Under the pieces are notes generated by a model. It saw only the letters and a list, made by a program, of their open reading frames with translations, had not been told where the DNA came from and made no database searches. A stretch of 44,874 nt of DNA, from the sequence record SRR20825019_158; one strand, given 5' to 3'. Shown here piece by piece: positions 8,131 through 32,019 of this stretch; position 1 is the stretch's first letter; each line of letters begins with the position of its first letter. The position numbers were made by a program, and so were the translations under genes.

Positions 8131-8792
8131 CGCTTTGTGTCAGATGAAGACCGATCTTTCGGTTTCCATTTCCTCAGATCATTGGCCAGCGCCCCGAAAC
8201 CTCCGGGAAAATCCGCTTCGAGTCGACGCACATCATTCCCATGCCGCGACACTTCCTTCACGGAGCAAACAATGGATTTTTTTAGAGAAGGCCGTGAAGT
8301 GCCGTAAACACGGCGTTTCAGTTCTGCCCGCGTATAAGGAAGCACCCCCTGTTCCTGCCCGATCCGCCAGGCTTCCTCAGTCACGGAATCATCCCGACCG
8401 CAAAGATACCATGCCTCAATCGCCGGCACAGCTAAACCAATGCAACGCATCACCCGCTTCCGTCCGTGAGCTGCGGGAAAACGCTTGGTGGTTTGCCGAA
8501 AGATGCTCCGCAATTCGCACAGCCGACACTGAGGGTGGAAATAGCCCTCCGCTTCGTGCTCAACCGTATGAACCACGCTATCATCACAATCCACCACCAC
8601 GATCAGCGCATCCGTATCCGTGTTGAAATGCAGATGCCTGATAATCGGAGGCAACACTTGCGCCACATTGGGCCACCCCCGGGCCCGCAGATGCGGACGC
8701 ACCCGTTTCACCTTTTGCCGTAACACGGCCTCCGCCAAGATCCGGATCCCCGCTTCATCCGCGGGTGATTCACTCAGCAGCGCAAGTTTCAT
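8127..8792 (-). CDS. Hypothetical protein with TOPRIM-like motifs (DUF4276/RloB-like)
   Basis: N-terminal LLSESPADE, central IVVVDCDD (DxD) and AVPAIEAWYL. 4-nt ATGA overlaps with both neighbours. Confidence 0.6.
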   Translation of the reverse strand: MKLALLSESPADEAGIRILAEAVLRQKVKRVRPHLRARGWPNVAQVLPPIIRHLHFNTDTDALIVVVDCDDSVVHTVEHEAEGYFHPQCRLCELRSIFRQTTKRFPAAHGRKRVMRCIGLAVPAIEAWYLCGRDDSVTEEAWRIGQEQGVLPYTRAELKRRVYGTSRPSLKKSIVCSVKEVSRHGNDVRRLEADFPGGFGALANDLRKWKPKDRSSSDTKR

Positions 8793-9781
8793 GATTCTTC
8801 GGGCACGCCTCCCAGAATGCCACTAAACCAGATGTCGCCGAGCGAACCTTCCGCCATCAGATCAGCCAGATCCTCTCGATCAGCAAGTGACTCGAATTGC
8901 GCGGCATTCCCCACTTTTTGTGAAATAACGACCTCCTCCGGATGATCGCGAAACAGATCCAGCAGATACGGCGAATGAGTCGTCGCAATCACTTGCACCT
9001 TCGCCCGCGTCTCCTCTTCGGGATAGCTCAACCGATAGAGCAAATCGCGCACCTCCCGCAACATCCGCGGGTGGATACCCCGGTCGATTTCCTCGATACA
9101 AACCACTGTCGGCGGAGTGGGATTCAGAGCCAAACACAGGATCCCCAGGAGGTAGAGCGTGCCTTGGGATAAATCCGTTGAAACAACGTCACCACTGCCA
9201 TCACTGAGAGGTAAGGCCACATCCAACATTGCCGCCGACGGCTCGACGATCTTGATACCGGAAAATTCGGGCATGATCCGCACCAGCTCGGACTCCAATT
9301 CGGCGAATGCTGCCGGATGCTCCGTCTGCATCACCGCCAAAACCGAAGCCAAATTCTTCCCATCGGAGGAGAGCTCCGCCGTATCAGCACGTTCGGAAGG
9401 TGCGGCCATCGCCCGGTGATCAAAATGAAACGCCCGGATCCCCGACAATTGGGACCGCAGTTGCGGCCAGTCTGGTGCATCGACGGGGTCCACCCTCAGC
9501 GCATCACATCGCAAATCCGAAATACAGGAAATCTCGGCGGCAATCGTTTCGTGCGGCGCGGTAAATTGAAACGTGATGCGTGGACCTTCTGATCGTGACG
9601 ACTCAGCTGACTCCGTCAGCACCTCCAGTTTCGACAGGGACCGCAATTGCAGCAGCGCCTGGATCAGACTGGTCTTTCCGCTGCCATTCGCACCGATCAC
9701 TAAATTAAAAGCTCGCAGGGCAAGATGCGCGTTACGCAAGGCCTTGAAATTTTGAAAGTCCACGTAAGCGATCACGGCCAT
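8789..9781 (-). CDS. AAA_21/AAA_15-type ABC-family ATPase
   Basis: NFKAL, Walker A GANGSGKT, signature LSQG, Walker B/D-loop CIEEIDRGIHP and H-loop TTHSPY. Start uncertain (ORF extends to 9805). Confidence 0.85.
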   Translation of the reverse strand: MAVIAYVDFQNFKALRNAHLALRAFNLVIGANGSGKTSLIQALLQLRSLSKLEVLTESAESSRSEGPRITFQFTAPHETIAAEISCISDLRCDALRVDPVDAPDWPQLRSQLSGIRAFHFDHRAMAAPSERADTAELSSDGKNLASVLAVMQTEHPAAFAELESELVRIMPEFSGIKIVEPSAAMLDVALPLSDGSGDVVSTDLSQGTLYLLGILCLALNPTPPTVVCIEEIDRGIHPRMLREVRDLLYRLSYPEEETRAKVQVIATTHSPYLLDLFRDHPEEVVISQKVGNAAQFESLADREDLADLMAEGSLGDIWFSGILGGVPEES

Positions 9782-9835
9782 CAGCATGAGCTTTATCTGC
9801 TGCATGCCAAGGTCTTCCGGACAGTCTATCGCGGA

Positions 9836-12800
9836 TTATCTACCTAGTAAGCGCTGCAGAAAGTCGTCCGCTCCGGTGCGCTCCATCGCAAGCCGGCGCA
9901 GGGCCGTTTCCAGTTCACTGGTATCAGGGCGCGCGAGGCTTCCTGCGATCTTCAGGGTCAGGGCACAGAGGGCATAGCCCAAATCGTCTTTCTCCTCTTT
10001 CAAGACACCCAGATAGCCAAAAGCAGCGCCGGTCTTTCCCCGCACTTTCATTTTCAATGAAAGGTGCAAAGGTTGCTCAAAAATATCCACGCCATCCTGC
10101 GCGGTGATTTTCCCATCCCCCGTTAATCGCACCTCCGGAGAAATCAGCGAAAAGTCCTTCAGAATCGTATTCAGATTATCCATCCGATACACCGAAACAT
10201 TGAGCTGATCATAAGGAATCGCCGTGAGCGTTTTCGAGAGTTCGGCGACTGCCTGTGACTTGCTCGCGAAATTCTGCGTCTCTTTGCCTCCACCCACTAC
10301 GTTGCCGATAAACGCGCCCAATGCCGCAATGCGTCCTGCATTTTCTACTTTCGCCGCTGCCTGCGGAGGAAGCACCCGAAACACCCCGCCGGTGCTCTTC
10401 AACTCAAGCTCACCCTGGGTGCGACGAACCAAGTCACCCGCGTTTTGTCCGGTCGCGGAAATCTGCGATTTAACATTGAAGACGCCTTCCACCTGCGGCG
10501 GGGCCCCCGGGCTCAATATTTGAAAAAGTGGTCCGGTTGCAAAATCGTTCACGACCATATCCGCCGCCAACGTATAGGGATGGGTCGCGGTGGCATCAAA
10601 GTCCAGTTTGCCCTGAAAACTCATCGCGCTCTCCCTGCCCACCCCGGCACGGAGATCCTCCAATTTCAGCCCGACCGGGGATACTTTGATCACCCCGCCC
10701 ACGTCACGCATTTCAAACGCATCAGTGTAGTGCAACACCTGCATGGCCAATTCGATTTCGCCGGCCAGGCCCGCCCAGAACGGACGTTCGTCCCGACCAC
10801 TCAGGGAAACTTCCTGCTGTGTCGCGGCCGAAGTGCCGGCCACAACCGCGCTCAGCAGTTCCAGATCATCGAGCCAAACTTCACGCCCACTCAATTTAGC
10901 CTCCAGGTGCAGACCTTCCCCTTTCGGAGTAAACGTGCCCTGCAGGATCAAATCAGAGACGCGCGATTCACGTGTAAAAGTGAGCGGCAAATTAAATCGC
11001 GTCTGCTTCGACCCATCAAACTGTGCGCGCAATTCCGCCATCATCGCAGGCAATTGCCCCGCTTCGGCGTTCACGAGATTATCGAGTGACACTTTGGCCT
11101 GAAGATCGCAGGTCTCCGCCCAAGAGCCCGAGAAATCCAATCGTAAGTTACCATCCTCCAAAAGCACCACCCCATCAGCGATCGGTTGTTTGAGTAAAGC
11201 CGGCAAAACAACTTCGGCGTGTCCTGTGCCGAGAATTGGCGCGCTTTTCGCCGCCGCCTGCCCGGCTTTTAACGAGAGCGACAATAGTCGCTCCTTCCCT
11301 GCCATCACTTCAATTGAGGTGATCTCCGTCTGCCAACCACGAGCCGTGTATTCGGCGGTGAAATCACTGCGCAGGTTTAAACCCTGCACCAAATCACGCC
11401 CGTCTTTTTCCAGCCCGATTTCATCAACCAGCAGCGGCGCGATCATTTTGGCACGCACGCCGCCATCGCGGGCATTCGCGGTAAATTTTCCGGAAATACC
11501 TCCGCCCGACAGACGATACTCGGAGATCAATGGAGCCAGCCACGCCACGGGGAGACCCAGCAGATCCACTTCGACGAGATCCAGCTCGGGATTCGCCACC
11601 TTTAATTCACCCGAGGCGGTATTTAACTCGAAGGTCTGGATCGCCGAGAGTTTGAGCACCGGTTCATCCTGGGTTGCCTCGAGCGAAAAGGTGTTGATCC
11701 GGCTCACTTCGCCATTCTGCAACACATCGAATTCCGCGAAGATTTTCAACCGGCCCACTTCGCGTAATTCCGGAGCGAGCGCTTCCAACCGATTCGCCGA
11801 AGCATTGATCCGCCCCGCGGCCTGAAATTCGCGAAAACCGATATCCGTTTCAAACATACCCGCCCCCACCGCATCAAATGTCGGGATCGGGTGTCCCAGC
11901 AAAAACGGTGTGATGTCAGTATCGCGCACATCCAACCGCCAGACACCACCCAGATGCTCGGAATCAGCCGGGAAATTCGCCTGCACATCCACGAGACGTT
12001 TGCCCACCGATTGCACGGTAAACGTATAATTCTCGCCACCTTTCACATTCGCCGCATCGGCCTGCACCGTGAGTTGCACCCCTTGCGGGAAAGCCGCCCC
12101 TCTCGCCTGTGCGTTCACGACCGAGGAAACATTCGCGAAAGTGCGCGGCGTATCCATCACCGCGTTCAACGTGCCTCGCATCGCAATCGTCTGCACCTGC
12201 GCGCCCACCTCATCGGTTTCGACCATGGCGGTCAGATCGAAAGCTCCTTCCCGACCAGCCGCAAATCCACCGCCGACCAAAGTCACTTGAATCGTCACCG
12301 GATGCTCTCCCGGACCCGCCAACATCATCACCTCCCCCTCCAAAACCACCCCATCTAGCGAAACATCCACAGGCAACTGCAGCTGCGATAACACGCCGCT
12401 AAAGATCATTTGCGCTACCGGTTGTGCTTGCGCGGCATACGCGGTTGACAGCAGGGAAATCGAAGGCGTGCGCGTCGGCCCCCAGGCCTGCACGATCTGC
12501 GCCGGACGATATTGGGTTAAATCCAGCGTCCACCCTCGCGCGACCAGCTTGCTCACCGCCACATTCCGTTTCCACGCCGCCGGCCACAGCGCAATCTCCG
12601 CTTCCAACTGAGGCAGGGTGAGCACGCCACCCTCATAATCGGCGCGGACATTCCGCATTTCGATTTGCCGCAACCCCACGGAGACCCGATCCACCGCCAG
12701 GGTTATTTCCGAATGTGATCCGGCGACCTGACGGACCACCCAGGTTTGCACGGACGACGTGAATGCCAAGCCCAACAGCAACAGCACCCCTCCGGCCATG

Positions 12801-12838
12801 ATCGCCGTCAGAGTGATAATTTTGCGAGAGGTAGTCAT
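9836..12838 (-). CDS. AsmA-like envelope protein
   Basis: ~1000 aa with a single N-terminal TM anchor, a long beta-rich body and a C-terminal LKIAGSLARPD typical of AsmA-like C-termini. Confidence 0.55.
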   Translation of the reverse strand: MTTSRKIITLTAIMAGGVLLLLGLAFTSSVQTWVVRQVAGSHSEITLAVDRVSVGLRQIEMRNVRADYEGGVLTLPQLEAEIALWPAAWKRNVAVSKLVARGWTLDLTQYRPAQIVQAWGPTRTPSISLLSTAYAAQAQPVAQMIFSGVLSQLQLPVDVSLDGVVLEGEVMMLAGPGEHPVTIQVTLVGGGFAAGREGAFDLTAMVETDEVGAQVQTIAMRGTLNAVMDTPRTFANVSSVVNAQARGAAFPQGVQLTVQADAANVKGGENYTFTVQSVGKRLVDVQANFPADSEHLGGVWRLDVRDTDITPFLLGHPIPTFDAVGAGMFETDIGFREFQAAGRINASANRLEALAPELREVGRLKIFAEFDVLQNGEVSRINTFSLEATQDEPVLKLSAIQTFELNTASGELKVANPELDLVEVDLLGLPVAWLAPLISEYRLSGGGISGKFTANARDGGVRAKMIAPLLVDEIGLEKDGRDLVQGLNLRSDFTAEYTARGWQTEITSIEVMAGKERLLSLSLKAGQAAAKSAPILGTGHAEVVLPALLKQPIADGVVLLEDGNLRLDFSGSWAETCDLQAKVSLDNLVNAEAGQLPAMMAELRAQFDGSKQTRFNLPLTFTRESRVSDLILQGTFTPKGEGLHLEAKLSGREVWLDDLELLSAVVAGTSAATQQEVSLSGRDERPFWAGLAGEIELAMQVLHYTDAFEMRDVGGVIKVSPVGLKLEDLRAGVGRESAMSFQGKLDFDATATHPYTLAADMVVNDFATGPLFQILSPGAPPQVEGVFNVKSQISATGQNAGDLVRRTQGELELKSTGGVFRVLPPQAAAKVENAGRIAALGAFIGNVVGGGKETQNFASKSQAVAELSKTLTAIPYDQLNVSVYRMDNLNTILKDFSLISPEVRLTGDGKITAQDGVDIFEQPLHLSLKMKVRGKTGAAFGYLGVLKEEKDDLGYALCALTLKIAGSLARPDTSELETALRRLAMERTGADDFLQRLLGR

Positions 12839-12918
12839 GGATATAAGGGACGCCTCCAATCTAAAAGAGTTGCCCCTGATGACACAATAAACATGCGCCG
12901 GACGGAATAAAACCGTCT

Positions 12919-28521: not shown

Positions 28522-29682
28522 ATGAGTGAAACCTGGAAAGCCTTTGTTGATTTCTTCACCTCGCTGAAGCTCACCGTCGTCCTGCTCGCACTGTCGATTA
28601 TCCTGATTTTCTGGGCCACCCTCGCCCAGGTGCAATTGGGAGTCTGGGGCGTGCAGGAGCATTTCTTCCGCACCTTTTTTGTACTCAACAATATCCCCGG
28701 CACCCATATACCCGTGCCGGTGTTTCCCGGTGGCTATTTCCTCGGCGGACTCCTGTTGATCAATCTCATCGCCGCTCACGTGCACCGTTTCAAGTTCACG
28801 TGGAGTAAGTCCGGCATCCAACTCACCCACCTCGGCCTGATCCTGCTGCTCATCGGCGAAATGCTGACCAGTATCTGGCAGGAAGAATATTCGATGCGCC
28901 TCGATGAAGGGCAGACCAAGAATTATTCGGAGAGCTATCGCGACAACGAACTCGCGATCATCGACATCACCGATCCCGATTTTGATGATGTCGTCGCGAT
29001 TCCCGACTCGCGTCTCGTGCCCGGCAAGGAAATCCAGCACGCCAAACTCCCTTTCCGCGTGCTCGTTCACGCCTTCTACCCCAATGCCTCGGTGCAAATG
29101 AGCAGTCAGGTGCCCAACGCTCCCGCGCCTATGGCGAATCAGGATATCGGAGCGCGCATCCACACCACGCCGCTTCCGCTCACCTACAAACAGGACGAAC
29201 GCAATCTCGCCGCCAGTTACATCGAGCTGATCGGTCCTCAGGGCAGCCTTGGCATTTGGTTGGCTTCCACCCAACTGATCAAAGCCCAGACCTTCGAATT
29301 CGAGGGGCGCACCTATTCACTCGGGCTGCGTTTCGCCCGTCACTACAAGCCCTACTCGCTCCATCTGATTGATTTCTCTCACGATGTTTATGCGGGCACC
29401 GATATTCCCAAGAATTTCTCCAGCCGGATTCGCCTGACCACTCCCGATGGTGTCGATGATCGCGAAGTGCTCATCTACATGAACAACCCGTTGCGCTATG
29501 CCGGACTCACGTTCTATCAGGCCGGCTTCGACAACAACGACCGCACGACAGTCCTTCAGGTCGTGCACAACCCGAGTTGGATCCTCCCTTATATTTCCTG
29601 CACCCTGATGGGGGTCGGTCTGTTGATCCAGTTCCTCATCTCCTTTTTCCGTTTCAGCAAACGCCGCCGCGCCCAAGCCTAA
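28522..29682 (+). CDS. resB: Cytochrome c biogenesis protein ResB/CcsB-like (System II)
   Basis: FFTSLKLTVVLL, THLGLILLLIG (TM His), periplasmic domain with PKNFSS and IYMNNPLRYAGLTFYQ, C-terminal TM; lies upstream of ccsA. Confidence 0.8.
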   Translation: MSETWKAFVDFFTSLKLTVVLLALSIILIFWATLAQVQLGVWGVQEHFFRTFFVLNNIPGTHIPVPVFPGGYFLGGLLLINLIAAHVHRFKFTWSKSGIQLTHLGLILLLIGEMLTSIWQEEYSMRLDEGQTKNYSESYRDNELAIIDITDPDFDDVVAIPDSRLVPGKEIQHAKLPFRVLVHAFYPNASVQMSSQVPNAPAPMANQDIGARIHTTPLPLTYKQDERNLAASYIELIGPQGSLGIWLASTQLIKAQTFEFEGRTYSLGLRFARHYKPYSLHLIDFSHDVYAGTDIPKNFSSRIRLTTPDGVDDREVLIYMNNPLRYAGLTFYQAGFDNNDRTTVLQVVHNPSWILPYISCTLMGVGLLIQFLISFFRFSKRRRAQA

Positions 29683-29729
29683 TGAATTTAAACGCGAAGG
29701 ACGCGGAGATCGCGGAGCCCATCTCATGA
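29682..29729 (+). CDS. 15-codon mini-ORF MNLNAKDAEIAEPIS encoded across the left IR (possible coupling peptide, or frameshifted N-terminus of GxxExxY)
   Basis: Its ATG overlaps the resB stop (TAATG, 29680-29684), and its TGA overlaps the GxxExxY ATG (ATGA, 29726-29729). Confidence 0.35.
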   Translation: MNLNAKDAEIAEPIS

Positions 29730-30148
29730 ATACCAACTCCCTCAATGATCTTTCCCATGAACTCATCGGCGCAGCGATTGAAGTGCATCGGGAGCTTGGC
29801 CCCGGGCTTTTGGAGTCAGCGTATGAAGGTGCCTATTCTCATGAGTTAGACCTTCGGAGTATTCCCCATGTCCGGCAAAAGACGATGCCAGTCCAATACA
29901 AAGGTGTGGTCATCGAGACCGGTTACCGAATCGATTTACTTGCTGAAAATCGCGTGGTCGTGGAATTGAAAGCTCTCGGACAACTCCTTCCTATTCATAG
30001 CGCTCAACTTTTGACCTACCTGCGGCTGGGGGAATTCCCCCTTGGCCTCCTCATCAATTTTAACGTCACGAAACTCGTCGATGGAGTCGAACGCGTGTCC
30101 AATCGCGCACCAAACCTCTCCGCGTTCTCTGCGTCCTCCGCGTTGAAA
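29687..30148. mobile_element. Putative GxxExxY cassette bounded by 31-bp imperfect terminal inverted repeats
   Basis: Left IR 29687-29717 tttaaacgcgaaggacgcggagatcgcggag vs reverse complement of 30118-30148 tttcaacgcggaggacgcagagaacgcggag: 27/31 identical. Each arm has three 9-bp subrepeats. Confidence 0.65.
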
Positions 30149-30169
30149 ACTCCGAATCCAAAATTGTGA
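29726..30169 (+). CDS. GxxExxY protein (PD-(D/E)XK nuclease-like fold)
   Basis: IGAAIEVHRELGPGLLESAYE (GxxExxY), RIDLL...VVELKA (D..ExK), AQLLTYL and GLLINFN. Confidence 0.92.
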   Translation: MNTNSLNDLSHELIGAAIEVHRELGPGLLESAYEGAYSHELDLRSIPHVRQKTMPVQYKGVVIETGYRIDLLAENRVVVELKALGQLLPIHSAQLLTYLRLGEFPLGLLINFNVTKLVDGVERVSNRAPNLSAFSASSALKTPNPKL

Positions 30170-32019
30170 AACGATTCATCCCTTTAATTGTTCTGCTCCT
30201 CGGGGCTGCTTGGTTGGTGAGCACCCTGGCTCCACGTGAGCCCAAGACGGAATTTGATGTCAACGGATTCGGACGCCTGCCGGTTTTGGTCAATGGTCGC
30301 GTCAAACCCATGGATACGGTCGCACGTTCCGCGTTGCTCCAATTTCAAGGGCGGCAACGAGTCACCACGCCGGACGAAAGCAAAGTCTCCCCGATCGAAT
30401 GGCTTATCGGCGTGTTCTTCGATTCTCAGACAACGGACACGTTCCGCACCTTTGAAATCGTGCACCCCGATGTCCTCACGCTGTTCAACCTGAAAGCCGA
30501 AGACGGTGATAAAAAGAAACGATTCTCGTTTAGCCAACTCGAGGAAGACCTGCCGGAATTGATGCGCCAATCCGAACTGGCCCAGCAAATCGAAGCACAG
30601 AAACGCACCCCTTTCCAACGCGGGATCGTGCAACTCCATCTGAAGATCGCCCGTTACCAGGAACTGAAACACTCGCTGATTCTCCCCGATTCGGATGATT
30701 TCCTCGGCGAACTCCTGCGATTTCAGGACGCCTTACCCGCCGGGATCGCCGCCGTGCGCGCCAAGCAACAGGGGCAGGACTACAGTGAGGATGCGTTTCA
30801 AGCCATGATCGTGATGGGGAAACGCTATGACCGGATGTCCGCCGGCACGCGTCTGCATCCGATTCCACCGGCAGCCAATGCCGAGGATCAAATGGTGTGG
30901 CACAACACCGGCCGTGCCCTCCTCGATACCTTCCAACGCGGCAGCGTTGATCCCACCGTGCTCTCCTACGCGGGTCTTGCCCATGCCTGGAACCACCATC
31001 AACCCGAACAGTTTAACAAGATCATCAGCCTGCTTCGTCCGGAGCTCGAGAAGCGTTACGCGCCGCAATTGGAAAAGTCCGACGTGGAAGTGCGCTTCAA
31101 TGCCGCGCAGCCATTTTACAACAGCATGATCCTCTACGTGCTGGCCTTTATTCTCGCGATCTTCTCGTGGCTTAAATGGCCGGATACCTTGGGTCGCTCC
31201 GCATTCTGGTTGATCGCCCTCGCCTTCATCGCGACGACCTTGGGAATCGCCACCCGGATGTGGCTCGAAGGCCGTCCACCGGTCACCAATCTCTACTCAT
31301 CCGCCCTCTTCGTCGGGTGGGGTGCCGTGCTGCTCTGTTTGTTCCTCGAGGCGATTTACAAAAATGCCATCGGCAGCGTCGCGGCCGGACTGGTCGGGTT
31401 TGGCACCTTGCTCATCGCGCATCATCTCTCGCTCAGCGGTGACACGTTGGAAATGATGCGTGCGGTGCTCGATTCCAACTTCTGGTTGGCCACCCATGTC
31501 GTCATTATCACGATCGGCTACTCCGCGACCTTCCTCGCCGGATTCCTTGCCCTTATTTATATCGTGCGCGGTCTGTTGACTCCCTCGCTGGACAAAGCGA
31601 CGGCCGATTCACTCGCGCGCATGGTTTACGGCATCGTCTGCTTCGCCACGTTGTTCAGTCTGATTGGCACCGTCCTCGGGGGAATCTGGGCGGATCAATC
31701 CTGGGGACGTTTCTGGGGCTGGGATCCCAAGGAAAACGGTGCCCTGATTATCGTGCTCTGGAATGCGATTATCCTCCACGCGCGCTGGGGCGGTCTCGTC
31801 AAACAACGCGGGCTCATGTGCCTCGCGATCTTTGGCAACGTGGTGACCAGCTGGAGCTGGTTCGGCACCAATATGCTCGGCGTCGGTCTGCACAGTTACG
31901 GTTTCATGGACGCCGCTTTCTGGTGGCTCACCGCCTTTATCGGCAGCCAGCTGATTCTGATCGCGATCGCCAATATCCCCTTGGAGAAATGGCGCAGCTT
32001 CCAAAATCGCCGAGCCTGA
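30166..32019 (+). CDS. ccsA: Cytochrome c biogenesis protein CcsA/ResC with a large N-terminal periplasmic domain
   Basis: WWD motif GGIWADQSWGRFWGWDPKE, WLATHV, ILHAR, GLHSYG and GRPPVTNLY; N-terminal GRVKPMDT segment. Confidence 0.92.
   Translation: MKRFIPLIVLLLGAAWLVSTLAPREPKTEFDVNGFGRLPVLVNGRVKPMDTVARSALLQFQGRQRVTTPDESKVSPIEWLIGVFFDSQTTDTFRTFEIVHPDVLTLFNLKAEDGDKKKRFSFSQLEEDLPELMRQSELAQQIEAQKRTPFQRGIVQLHLKIARYQELKHSLILPDSDDFLGELLRFQDALPAGIAAVRAKQQGQDYSEDAFQAMIVMGKRYDRMSAGTRLHPIPPAANAEDQMVWHNTGRALLDTFQRGSVDPTVLSYAGLAHAWNHHQPEQFNKIISLLRPELEKRYAPQLEKSDVEVRFNAAQPFYNSMILYVLAFILAIFSWLKWPDTLGRSAFWLIALAFIATTLGIATRMWLEGRPPVTNLYSSALFVGWGAVLLCLFLEAIYKNAIGSVAAGLVGFGTLLIAHHLSLSGDTLEMMRAVLDSNFWLATHVVIITIGYSATFLAGFLALIYIVRGLLTPSLDKATADSLARMVYGIVCFATLFSLIGTVLGGIWADQSWGRFWGWDPKENGALIIVLWNAIILHARWGGLVKQRGLMCLAIFGNVVTSWSWFGTNMLGVGLHSYGFMDAAFWWLTAFIGSQLILIAIANIPLEKWRSFQNRRA

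Follow-up and report, generated by a model that had tools for sequence, protein, structure and literature searches.

Why does a small gene of the GxxExxY family, bracketed by inverted repeats, interrupt the cytochrome c biogenesis genes resB and ccsA in a 44,874-nt stretch of sequence record SRR20825019_158 (the window, meaning here the whole stretch analysed)? An initial annotation of this DNA had suggested a minimal mobile element. Comparison with related genomes shows that window positions 29679-30165 are a self-contained cassette, inserted at the DNA level precisely where the resB stop overlaps the ccsA start. This cassette is a member of a large family of similar units, which appear at and vanish from the junctions between genes. 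By its CcsA relatives, the window is assigned to Opitutaceae (Verrucomicrobiota), where the nearest named record is a Cephaloticoccus assembly (77%). The parts of the locus are listed below; ORF stands for open reading frame, and a slash within a sequence marks a cassette border.

28522..29682, plus strand: resB/ccsB-type cytochrome c biogenesis gene, the upstream host gene (PF05140 ResB, 1.4e-19)
29679..30165, plus strand: whole inserted cassette, 487 bp, set against the empty site of the closest relative, L111 (...caagc/ATGAaaaag)
29682..29729, plus strand: 15-codon upstream ORF MNLNAKDAEIAEPIS, read from the letters, running through the left arm
29687..29717, plus strand: left arm, a TTTAAA cap and three 9-bp-phased units with the words CGCGAAG, CGCGGAG, and CGCGGAG
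29726..30169, plus strand: GxxExxY/PDDEXK_3 gene, 147 aa, with core residues 1-124 and a 23-residue tail from the right arm and spacer
30118..30148, plus strand: right arm, inside the ORF, reverse complement of the left arm (27/31)
30166..32019, plus strand: ccsA/ccsB-type cytochrome c assembly gene, the downstream host gene (PF01578, 1.4e-21; TIGR03144, 4.4e-36, below its cut-off)

The junction of L111 reads ...cgcgcccaagc/ATGAaaaag and that of the window ...cgcgcccaagc/CTAATGAATTTAAACGCG...AAAATT/GTGAaacg. This comparison defines the 487-bp insert. The last 11 residues of the window ResB are identical to those of L111. All of the five closest relatives found (metagenome loci L111-L115, CcsA 69-84% identical) are empty and have an ATGA stop/start overlap, and resB and ccsA also overlap by ATGA in the closest genome loci (L001-L003, L005, and L007). 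The window copy stands alone among a dozen empty relatives. In a second comparison, L130 is filled, and L066 and L037 are empty (...CAC/ATGAAACG). Here, the flanks are 93-98% identical over most of the alignment, and the cassette borders are the same at the nucleotide level. The synonymous divergence (pS) of ccsA between L130 and the two empty loci is 0.18-0.25 (18% of synonymous sites for L130 against L066). The proposal that gene and arms form one inserted unit is therefore supported by the empty ATGA-overlap site of the closest relatives, and the suggested search for empty resB-ccsA sites fixed the ends to the base.

No 30-residue stretch of the window ResB or CcsA is nearer to cassette-bearing hosts of the same arm-word class (class A, see below) than to the close relatives, which indicates that no flanking DNA arrived with the cassette. 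Nor was a recombination patch found in the flanks, as every such stretch is nearer the close relatives than the class A hosts.

The two arms (29687-29717 and 30118-30148) form an inverted repeat of 31 nt that is 27/31 (87%) complementary over a distance of 400 nt, and the second-best inverted pair in the 901-nt region has 18 nt. Each arm consists of three 9-bp-phased units on the word CGCRRAG behind a TTTAAA cap, with the arm ends reading TT(T)AA(A)C plus word. Tandem Repeats Finder reports period 9 with 3.1 copies at 30117-30144. The three 9-mers of the left arm end 8 nt before the GxxExxY ATG; the right arm lies within the ORF and encodes LSAFSASSAL. A two-unit pattern occurs four times in the window, always in the arms (0.35 expected; 0/100 shuffles reached four), and exact matches to the three-unit pattern within the window are the two arms only. 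The repeats are thus as first annotated, and the gene assignments hold as well (PF13366 and TIGR04256, with PF05140 and PF01578 on the flanks).

The usual marks of a known mobile element were sought. A Pfam scan (E<=1e-5) of the 35 window ORFs, 31 of which are other large ORFs, gave no transposase or integrase family, as the initial annotation had stated. Nor had it reported a clear target-site duplication. Compared with the empty L111 junction, the two window borders have at most TGA or ATGAA in common, letters that both genes require in any case. A GTAG or CGTC tag was not seen at the arm ends in the window, the occupied junctions, or the paralogue flanks. An Rfam scan of the cassette gave two chance-level matches only, with no rRNA or other family, and no promoter-like or terminator-like site was seen inside the window cassette. 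Elsewhere in the window, the intergenic segment 44603-44660 (CCACGGATTGCACCGATTACTCAGA, and about 20 nt later ATTCCGTGCA) resembles a decayed phased-arm hairpin and matches the three-unit pattern with one mismatch.

How common is such a cassette at this junction? We collected 80 genome loci, 77 of them with both genes, and 80 metagenome loci; the gene scan covered all loci, and junction gaps were measured for 52 of the 80 metagenome loci. A GxxExxY gene is present in 15 of the 77 genome junctions. Thirty are overlaps (26 by ATGA, 4 by 1 nt), 13 have gaps of 3-36 nt, and 3 have no resB stop before ccsA. In the remaining 16, a gap of 50-319 nt lacks the gene. Ten of these gaps are gene-less or decayed hairpins: six are phased-arm remnants, four are inverted arrays of 7-bp period, and in the other six gaps, nothing is recognisable. 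L031 has kept both arms and lost the gene, L040 has the arms and the C-terminal end of the gene, L069, L077, and L063 have gene-less hairpins, and L045 has one arm only. Matched arms are found in 14 of the 15 occupied junctions, the exception being L029.

The arm words fall into at least four classes: class A, that of the window (CGCGGAG/CGCAGAG), class B (CACCAAG/CGCAAAG), class C (CACGAAG), and a further type in L079. On a ResB and CcsA tree of 75 rows, the distribution of occupied and unoccupied junctions needs at least 18 changes (gains or losses); for class A by itself the number is 7, and well-supported branches force every one of them. One tight group with common borders lets the turnover be followed nucleotide by nucleotide. 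L066 and L037 are empty (GCCAC/ATGAAACGC), L130 carries class A, L073 class B, and L057 and L131 class C. L122 pairs a class A right arm with a left arm whose word is different, and L041 has a 7-bp-period hairpin with the same borders.

Several other features were noticed at these loci. In L036, L038, L041, L055, and L146, the junction holds hairpins of 68-78 nt with arms of 7-bp-period arrays (GCTACYC/GRGTAGC), the left arm of which enters the end of resB. In L064, L126, L026, L057, and L131, the resB stop is the TAA of the element's own TTAA/TTTAAA terminus, meaning that the cassette supplies the end of the host gene. L035, L078, L080, L129, L149, L151, L152, L155, and L156 have no resB stop before ccsA and a frame of about 1.9 kb, which looks like an in-frame ResB-CcsA fusion in one clade. 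At another gene junction, on the minus strand, a hairpin of 156-181 nt with AGCTCCA words in 7-bp phase is present in L073 (2589-2771), L008 (2641-2798), and L036 (3069-3249), and the same junction is an ATGA-type overlap in L066, L037, and L009. A further palindromic repeat (GTCATTCTGAGCG.AGCGAAG.ATCC and its complement) occurs in L022 (3469-3666 and 8235-8582) and L008 (753-931), varies in presence among close relatives, and also lies within the junction element of L122.

Homing-type spread deserves attention here: the nuclease would cut the empty junction of a relative, double-strand-break repair would copy the cassette in, and the arms would be secondary. Such spread would account for a nuclease gene that is present or absent, with exact borders, between two conserved genes, and for the repeated use of the same junctions by different classes (resB-ccsA; L105; L083/L087; L086/L095). 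The first 30-120 nt of ccsA are also unusually diverged between close relatives with different alleles, and, as a weak hint, the first 30 nt of the L073 ccsA are nearer to another class B host (80% vs 73%). However, the window flanks contain no evident co-converted tract, and the upstream flank of L130 is L066-like up to the border. A family of thousands at many junctions would need equally many target specificities, and the conserved arms and the many gene-less hairpins would be left unexplained. We consider homing quite unlikely.

Do gene and arms belong together beyond this junction? In five related genomes, PF13366 has 33 matches, and 28 fetched loci could be scored. Flanking phased inverted repeats exceed the 95th percentile of the null in 20 of these 28 paralogues, the null being mismatched flanks (mean 7.7, 95th percentile 11). 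Each paralogue copy has its own word (CACGAAA, CACGAAT, CGCTAAT, CACGGAA, CACGGAT, CACAGAG, and others). Word endings, assigned by eye, need 10 changes on a 34-row protein tree compared with 21.1 in shuffles (0/200 as low). Two checks proposed in the initial annotation, for 9-bp-periodic inverted flanks at other GxxExxY loci and for co-variation of the arms with the protein phylogeny, thus fell on the side of a mobile cassette. Between species, the class A left arms are 85% identical (11 loci) and the right arms 88% (10 loci). The pattern used to find these arms forces part of the word identity, but even their free spacers reach 68-72%. The enclosed gene is near synonymous saturation (pS 0.71, 45 pairs), whereas the arm-encoded tail has a pS of 0.36. 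From arm identity and the low tail pS, we conclude that the arms are constrained as nucleic acid.

Gene-less inverted pairs, for which a search had likewise been suggested, are abundant in relatives. The three-unit pattern has 42, 116, 137, 102, and 19 copies in the five related genomes against 0-1 for the reversed pattern, and most arrays are plus/minus pairs tens of bases apart. Among 101 Verrucomicrobiota genomes, 52 have the gene, in 49 it was not found, and the number of gene copies per genome ranges from 0 to 12. Arrays are about nine times commoner in genomes with the gene than in those without it (sums 1566 vs 178, medians 11 vs 2, Spearman 0.65, all by statistics that ignore kinship), and a control pattern shows no difference (102 vs 88). 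In genome G001, about 25 of the 42 phased arrays lie within 25 kb of contig C33 (about 150-175 kb) around one GxxExxY gene (L084).

Cassettes at other junctions also vary in presence: four of them in the related genome G002, which contains L008, were checked against its five nearest relatives, where the empty sites are exact stop/start junctions. L086 is missing in 4/4, and its empty site is an ATGA overlap. L090 is missing in 4/4; it separates a TAA stop from the following ATG, and the empty site has 1 nt between the two. L081 is missing in 5/5; the sister genome has a cassette with 78% identity to it at a distance of about 5 kb. L105 is also present in the sister genome and empty in three (3/5); the junction in the fifth genome holds a gene-less hairpin of another word. 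As a preferred target, ATGA was rejected: 7 of 17 downstream starts, read by eye, are ATGA, several of them at one orthologous junction, which gives no clear preference. At L081 (1219-2070) and L238 (G106 C5:50238-50797), a cassette with the word CACGAAT has, in place of single arms, a pair of complete hairpins at one end and one more at the opposite end, and these related copies are at different places in two sister genomes.

Close relatives carry different cassette classes, and several cassette pairs are far more diverged than their hosts (e.g., L130-L009, pS 0.74 vs 0.31). Cassette G+C is 44-57% and that of the flanks 55-69%, with the cassette 5-16 points lower in 18/18 loci. The evidence for gain, loss, and swap is mixed; parsimony favours repeated insertion at the DNA level. 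We can hardly credit that this is an ordinary small gene, passed down vertically, whose inverted repeat arose by chance. The correlation between cassette and host identity given below speaks for such a gene, and nothing beyond it does; the empty sites and the recurrence of matched arms contradict it.

How can the cassette sit in this operon? In the window, the GxxExxY stop TGA overlaps the ccsA GTG start by 4 nt (GTGA), and a script found an (A/G)TGA overlap between gene stop and ccsA start in 8 of the 11 class A loci, or 9 of 11 after L046 was read by eye. The 9-bp unit keeps the reading frame through the right arm. In classes B and C, the gene stops before the right arm with 25-58 nt left. 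The initial annotation had noted that the right repeat encodes a low-complexity tail, which holds; this SAFSASSALK tail is better described as read-through of the right arm to the old ATGA junction, and read-through into the ccsA-start overlap in this lineage explains its low complexity. The 15-codon ORF begins with an ATG that shares letters with the resB stop (TAATG) and ends with a TGA that shares letters with the start of the GxxExxY gene (ATGA), an arrangement seen in the window only among class A loci. This ORF may be translated, in which case coupling would follow overlaps that are unbroken from resB through the 15-codon ORF and the GxxExxY gene to ccsA.

Is the cassette an RNA device instead? 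The arms would then form a double-stranded RNA stem that is cut by RNase III, as in intervening sequences of rRNA. The cassette RNA would be released or destabilised, the insertion would become tolerable, and the protein would have no part in a spread brought about by other means. The build matches the 23S rRNA intervening sequence of Coxiella, which is 428 nt long, has terminal inverted repeats that form a 28-bp stem cut in its middle by RNase III, and carries tandem heptamers directly ahead of its S23p ORF start (PMC4990558). PF05635 genes (four-helix bundle, "23S rRNA IVS protein") of related Opitutaceae genomes point the same way, as 16/17 have phased inverted arms of 6-8-nt words (about 7-bp period) with a score of at least 13, counted without a separate null. 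So does the co-orientation of cassettes with their neighbours in related genomes (20/25 upstream, 22/26 downstream, from crude ORF calls). A long stem is predicted for the window cassette as well, on both strands, and folding therefore does not discriminate RNA from DNA.

The arm mismatches do not favour pairing in the sense transcript. Among 104 mismatches in 32 elements, read on the sense strand, 15 are G.T (G.U-compatible) and 43 are A.C (11 vs 24 outside class A), although the A.C excess could reflect selection for A-rich sequence before start codons. Moreover, the class A gene is translated through the right arm into the ccsA overlap, and a cut there would sever both messages. On these two grounds, the earlier suggestion that the arms pair in the mRNA and loop the gene out seems less probable, although the RNase III cut in the sister build of 23S rRNA keeps it in play. 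An intergenic insert is tolerable without RNA excision, the arrival of DNA at exact junctions is left unexplained, and no Rfam family matches. Hence, an RNA device of this kind appears unlikely. The PF05635 loci themselves (L191-L210 in genomes G002-G005; e.g., L197, L199, and L192) lie outside rRNA and use words such as GGATTGC, CCTGAAA, GTTGAGA, GGAGCAG, and TTTTCGA.

What is the encoded protein? The 147-aa ORF matches PF13366 PDDEXK_3 (E 7.8e-39, 133.1 bits, cut-off 22) and TIGR04256 GxxExxY (E 4.5e-40, 136.6 bits, cut-off 35); these are its sole Pfam and NCBIfam matches, with no HUH Y1 transposase and no PF05635. The name-giving motif is G27/E30/Y33, and the catalytic-type residues D..ELK named in the initial annotation are present as D70 and E80-L-K82. 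G27, E30, D70, and K82 are invariant among 38 aligned relatives. The GxxExxY/PDDEXK_3 family is very large, with at least 8000 matches in a word-limited search, and a 2012 superfamily survey lists its function as unknown and reports multiple transfers (PMC3424549). Sequence and profile searches of the PDB with the protein gave no match; the ESM Atlas has no entry for it, and neither a model nor a usable feature match for one homologue. A plasmid or phage as the vector was rejected: among 72,556 plasmid records, 8 carry the protein, each of them non-mobilizable, and none of 50,697 phage records does.

Such a protein could serve the host, for example as a nuclease for repair, defence, or RNA processing that operons retain and that has been lost many times, with arms that regulate translation. 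Strong purifying selection (ratio of nonsynonymous to synonymous divergence, pN/pS, 0.18), integration in the translational-coupling chain of the operon, and cassette identity that tracks the host within classes would agree with this, as would a weak, sub-threshold likeness to Cas4 (11/38 members, best E 0.014). However, the gene is missing from the five closest relatives and most junctions, different classes and gene-less hairpins occupy one site, and the low G+C is found in every locus compared. Scans of six proteins gave only two weak matches to defence families (PADLOC, E 0.0016 and 0.0024) and no match to phage families (PHROGs), and the variable copy number with absence from nearly half of the genomes also disagrees. 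A host-serving gene is thus very unlikely in our view.

We therefore return to a mobile cassette. With a confidence close to even, we propose that it is a selfish-looking unit like those of repetitive extragenic palindromes (REP) and their REP-associated tyrosine transposases (RAYT), in which a GxxExxY nuclease would recognise its own arms and move the cassette and gene-less hairpins. It would work like a REP/RAYT unit with a different enzyme. The putative nuclease would recognise the phased words of its arms, probably when these are folded as a hairpin or cruciform, and cutting at the arms could cause the cassette, and gene-less hairpins too, to be excised, inserted, or copied by recombination. 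Without a promoter of its own, the cassette would be expressed from the host operon; read-through expression from upstream genes has been proposed for RAYTs (PMC3733652). In the window lineage, right-arm read-through into the (A/G)TGA overlap with the ccsA start would keep the operon working.

Several results weigh against this proposal. Binding, cleavage, and transposition by the GxxExxY protein are what we infer from sequence comparison, so that from the minimal mobile element first suggested, the single inserted unit of gene and arms stands and all checks that were run fall on the side of a mobile cassette, while movement by the protein is the inferred part. No clear target-site duplication was seen at the window and L130 borders, nor any at the other junctions compared. 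Cassette identity follows host identity within a class (r 0.70 in class A, 7 rows; r 0.96 in class B, 5 rows), as would be expected if cassettes had long been inherited vertically and sometimes lost. No cassette pair among the sampled lineages is nearer at synonymous sites than its hosts, and recent horizontal transfer between these lineages is therefore not seen and was set aside as a candidate; the comparison is weak because a G+C content of 67-96% at third codon positions holds down host pS and makes cassette-to-host comparisons rough. Co-variation of word and protein is expected from co-inheritance (shared descent) alone, and kinship may likewise enter the link between gene and arrays, where 4 of the 49 genomes without the gene have at least 10 arrays and 4 of the 52 with it have none above control. 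Finally, PF05635 is a non-nuclease in phased inverted arms. Therefore, a nuclease cannot be a general requirement, which warns against assuming that the cargo protein cuts.

A wider generalisation is possible, if doubtful. GxxExxY cassettes may form a new class of minimal autonomous mobile element, in which a PD-(D/E)XK nuclease of about 120 residues would read its own hairpin ends by their phased words, move itself and gene-less hairpins into stop/start junctions of tightly packed, translationally coupled genes, and be able to rebuild the coupling, in the window by right-arm read-through to the former ATGA. A sister class with a four-helix bundle and 7-bp words would then be the source of 23S rRNA intervening sequences.

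Which known systems come closest? REPtrons and TIRtrons, as described in PMC3733652, combine genes for RAYT or TIRYT (tyrosine transposases associated with terminal inverted repeats) of the HUH Y1 type with REP, REPIN (REP doublets forming hairpins), or long inverted repeats. They resemble the cassette in that one small gene is bracketed by inverted palindromic repeats, gene-less copies are far more numerous (for the cassette, this is known from the 19-137 arrays of related genomes), the repeat type is tied to the gene lineage, and complete hairpins flank some cassettes (L081/L238). They differ in that the cassette encodes a PD-(D/E)XK-type GxxExxY protein rather than an HUH tyrosine transposase, its arms are a 7-base word in 9-bp phase rather than GTAG- or CGTC-tagged palindromes, and the cassettes lie exactly at stop/start junctions inside operons. 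The ORF-bearing 23S rRNA intervening sequences of Coxiella and Leptospira (S23p/PF05635) are alike in their length of about 430-490 nt, the one small ORF in the loop, the terminal stem of about 28-31 bp, and the tandem short words by the ORF start, and they are regarded as selfish (PMC4990558). Unlike these, the cassette is at an mRNA operon junction and not in rRNA helix 45, its ORF is PF13366 and not PF05635, its word period is 9 and not 7, and an RNase III cut would hit the coding tail of its own gene.

Other systems share fewer features. Free-standing homing endonuclease genes also place a nuclease gene between conserved genes, with filled and empty alleles and exact borders. Miniature inverted-repeat transposable elements and elements of the insertion-sequence type also have inverted ends and shorter gene-less derivatives (here L040, L139, L142, and L069). 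In contrast to both, no family of homing endonucleases or transposases is recognised in the window, and neither a target-site duplication nor a co-conversion tract is clearly visible there. An integron gene cassette has a single 3' attC and an integrase/attI platform, whereas here arms stand on both sides of the gene and the window has no integrase. The short tandemly repeated repetitive sequences (STRR) of cyanobacteria are tandem heptamer-scale words in intergenic DNA, but they form direct arrays and not arms around a gene. In the literature, we found no published description of a GxxExxY/PDDEXK gene with phased inverted arms, although supplementary files might bear on this, and nothing on this build in work on REP or hairpins of Verrucomicrobia/Opitutaceae. 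The cassette belongs to a widespread kind of selfish-looking DNA that has apparently not been described before, and whose plan is that of REP/RAYT units and rRNA intervening sequences, with a GxxExxY protein as the difference.

The locus is informative in several respects. It ties the GxxExxY family to a repeat-plus-gene cassette and so gives the family a testable role. Such a cassette accounts for many of the short hairpin repeats between genes of Verrucomicrobiota, and probably of other groups, and links them to the unexplained origin of rRNA intervening sequences. One orthologous junction in more than 130 species and metagenome contigs, with empty, filled, swapped, and decayed states, is a natural experiment that sets both ends of the element with single-base precision and illustrates how an essential operon can accommodate a cassette while its translational coupling stays intact.

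The remaining window is ordinary chromosome with genes for transketolase, TrmD, IF-2, NusA, an RND efflux operon, RecN, and others. On the minus strand at 8789-12859, an AAA_21/AAA_15 ATPase ORF (AbiEii-type family name) adjoins a 1007-aa ORF without a Pfam match.
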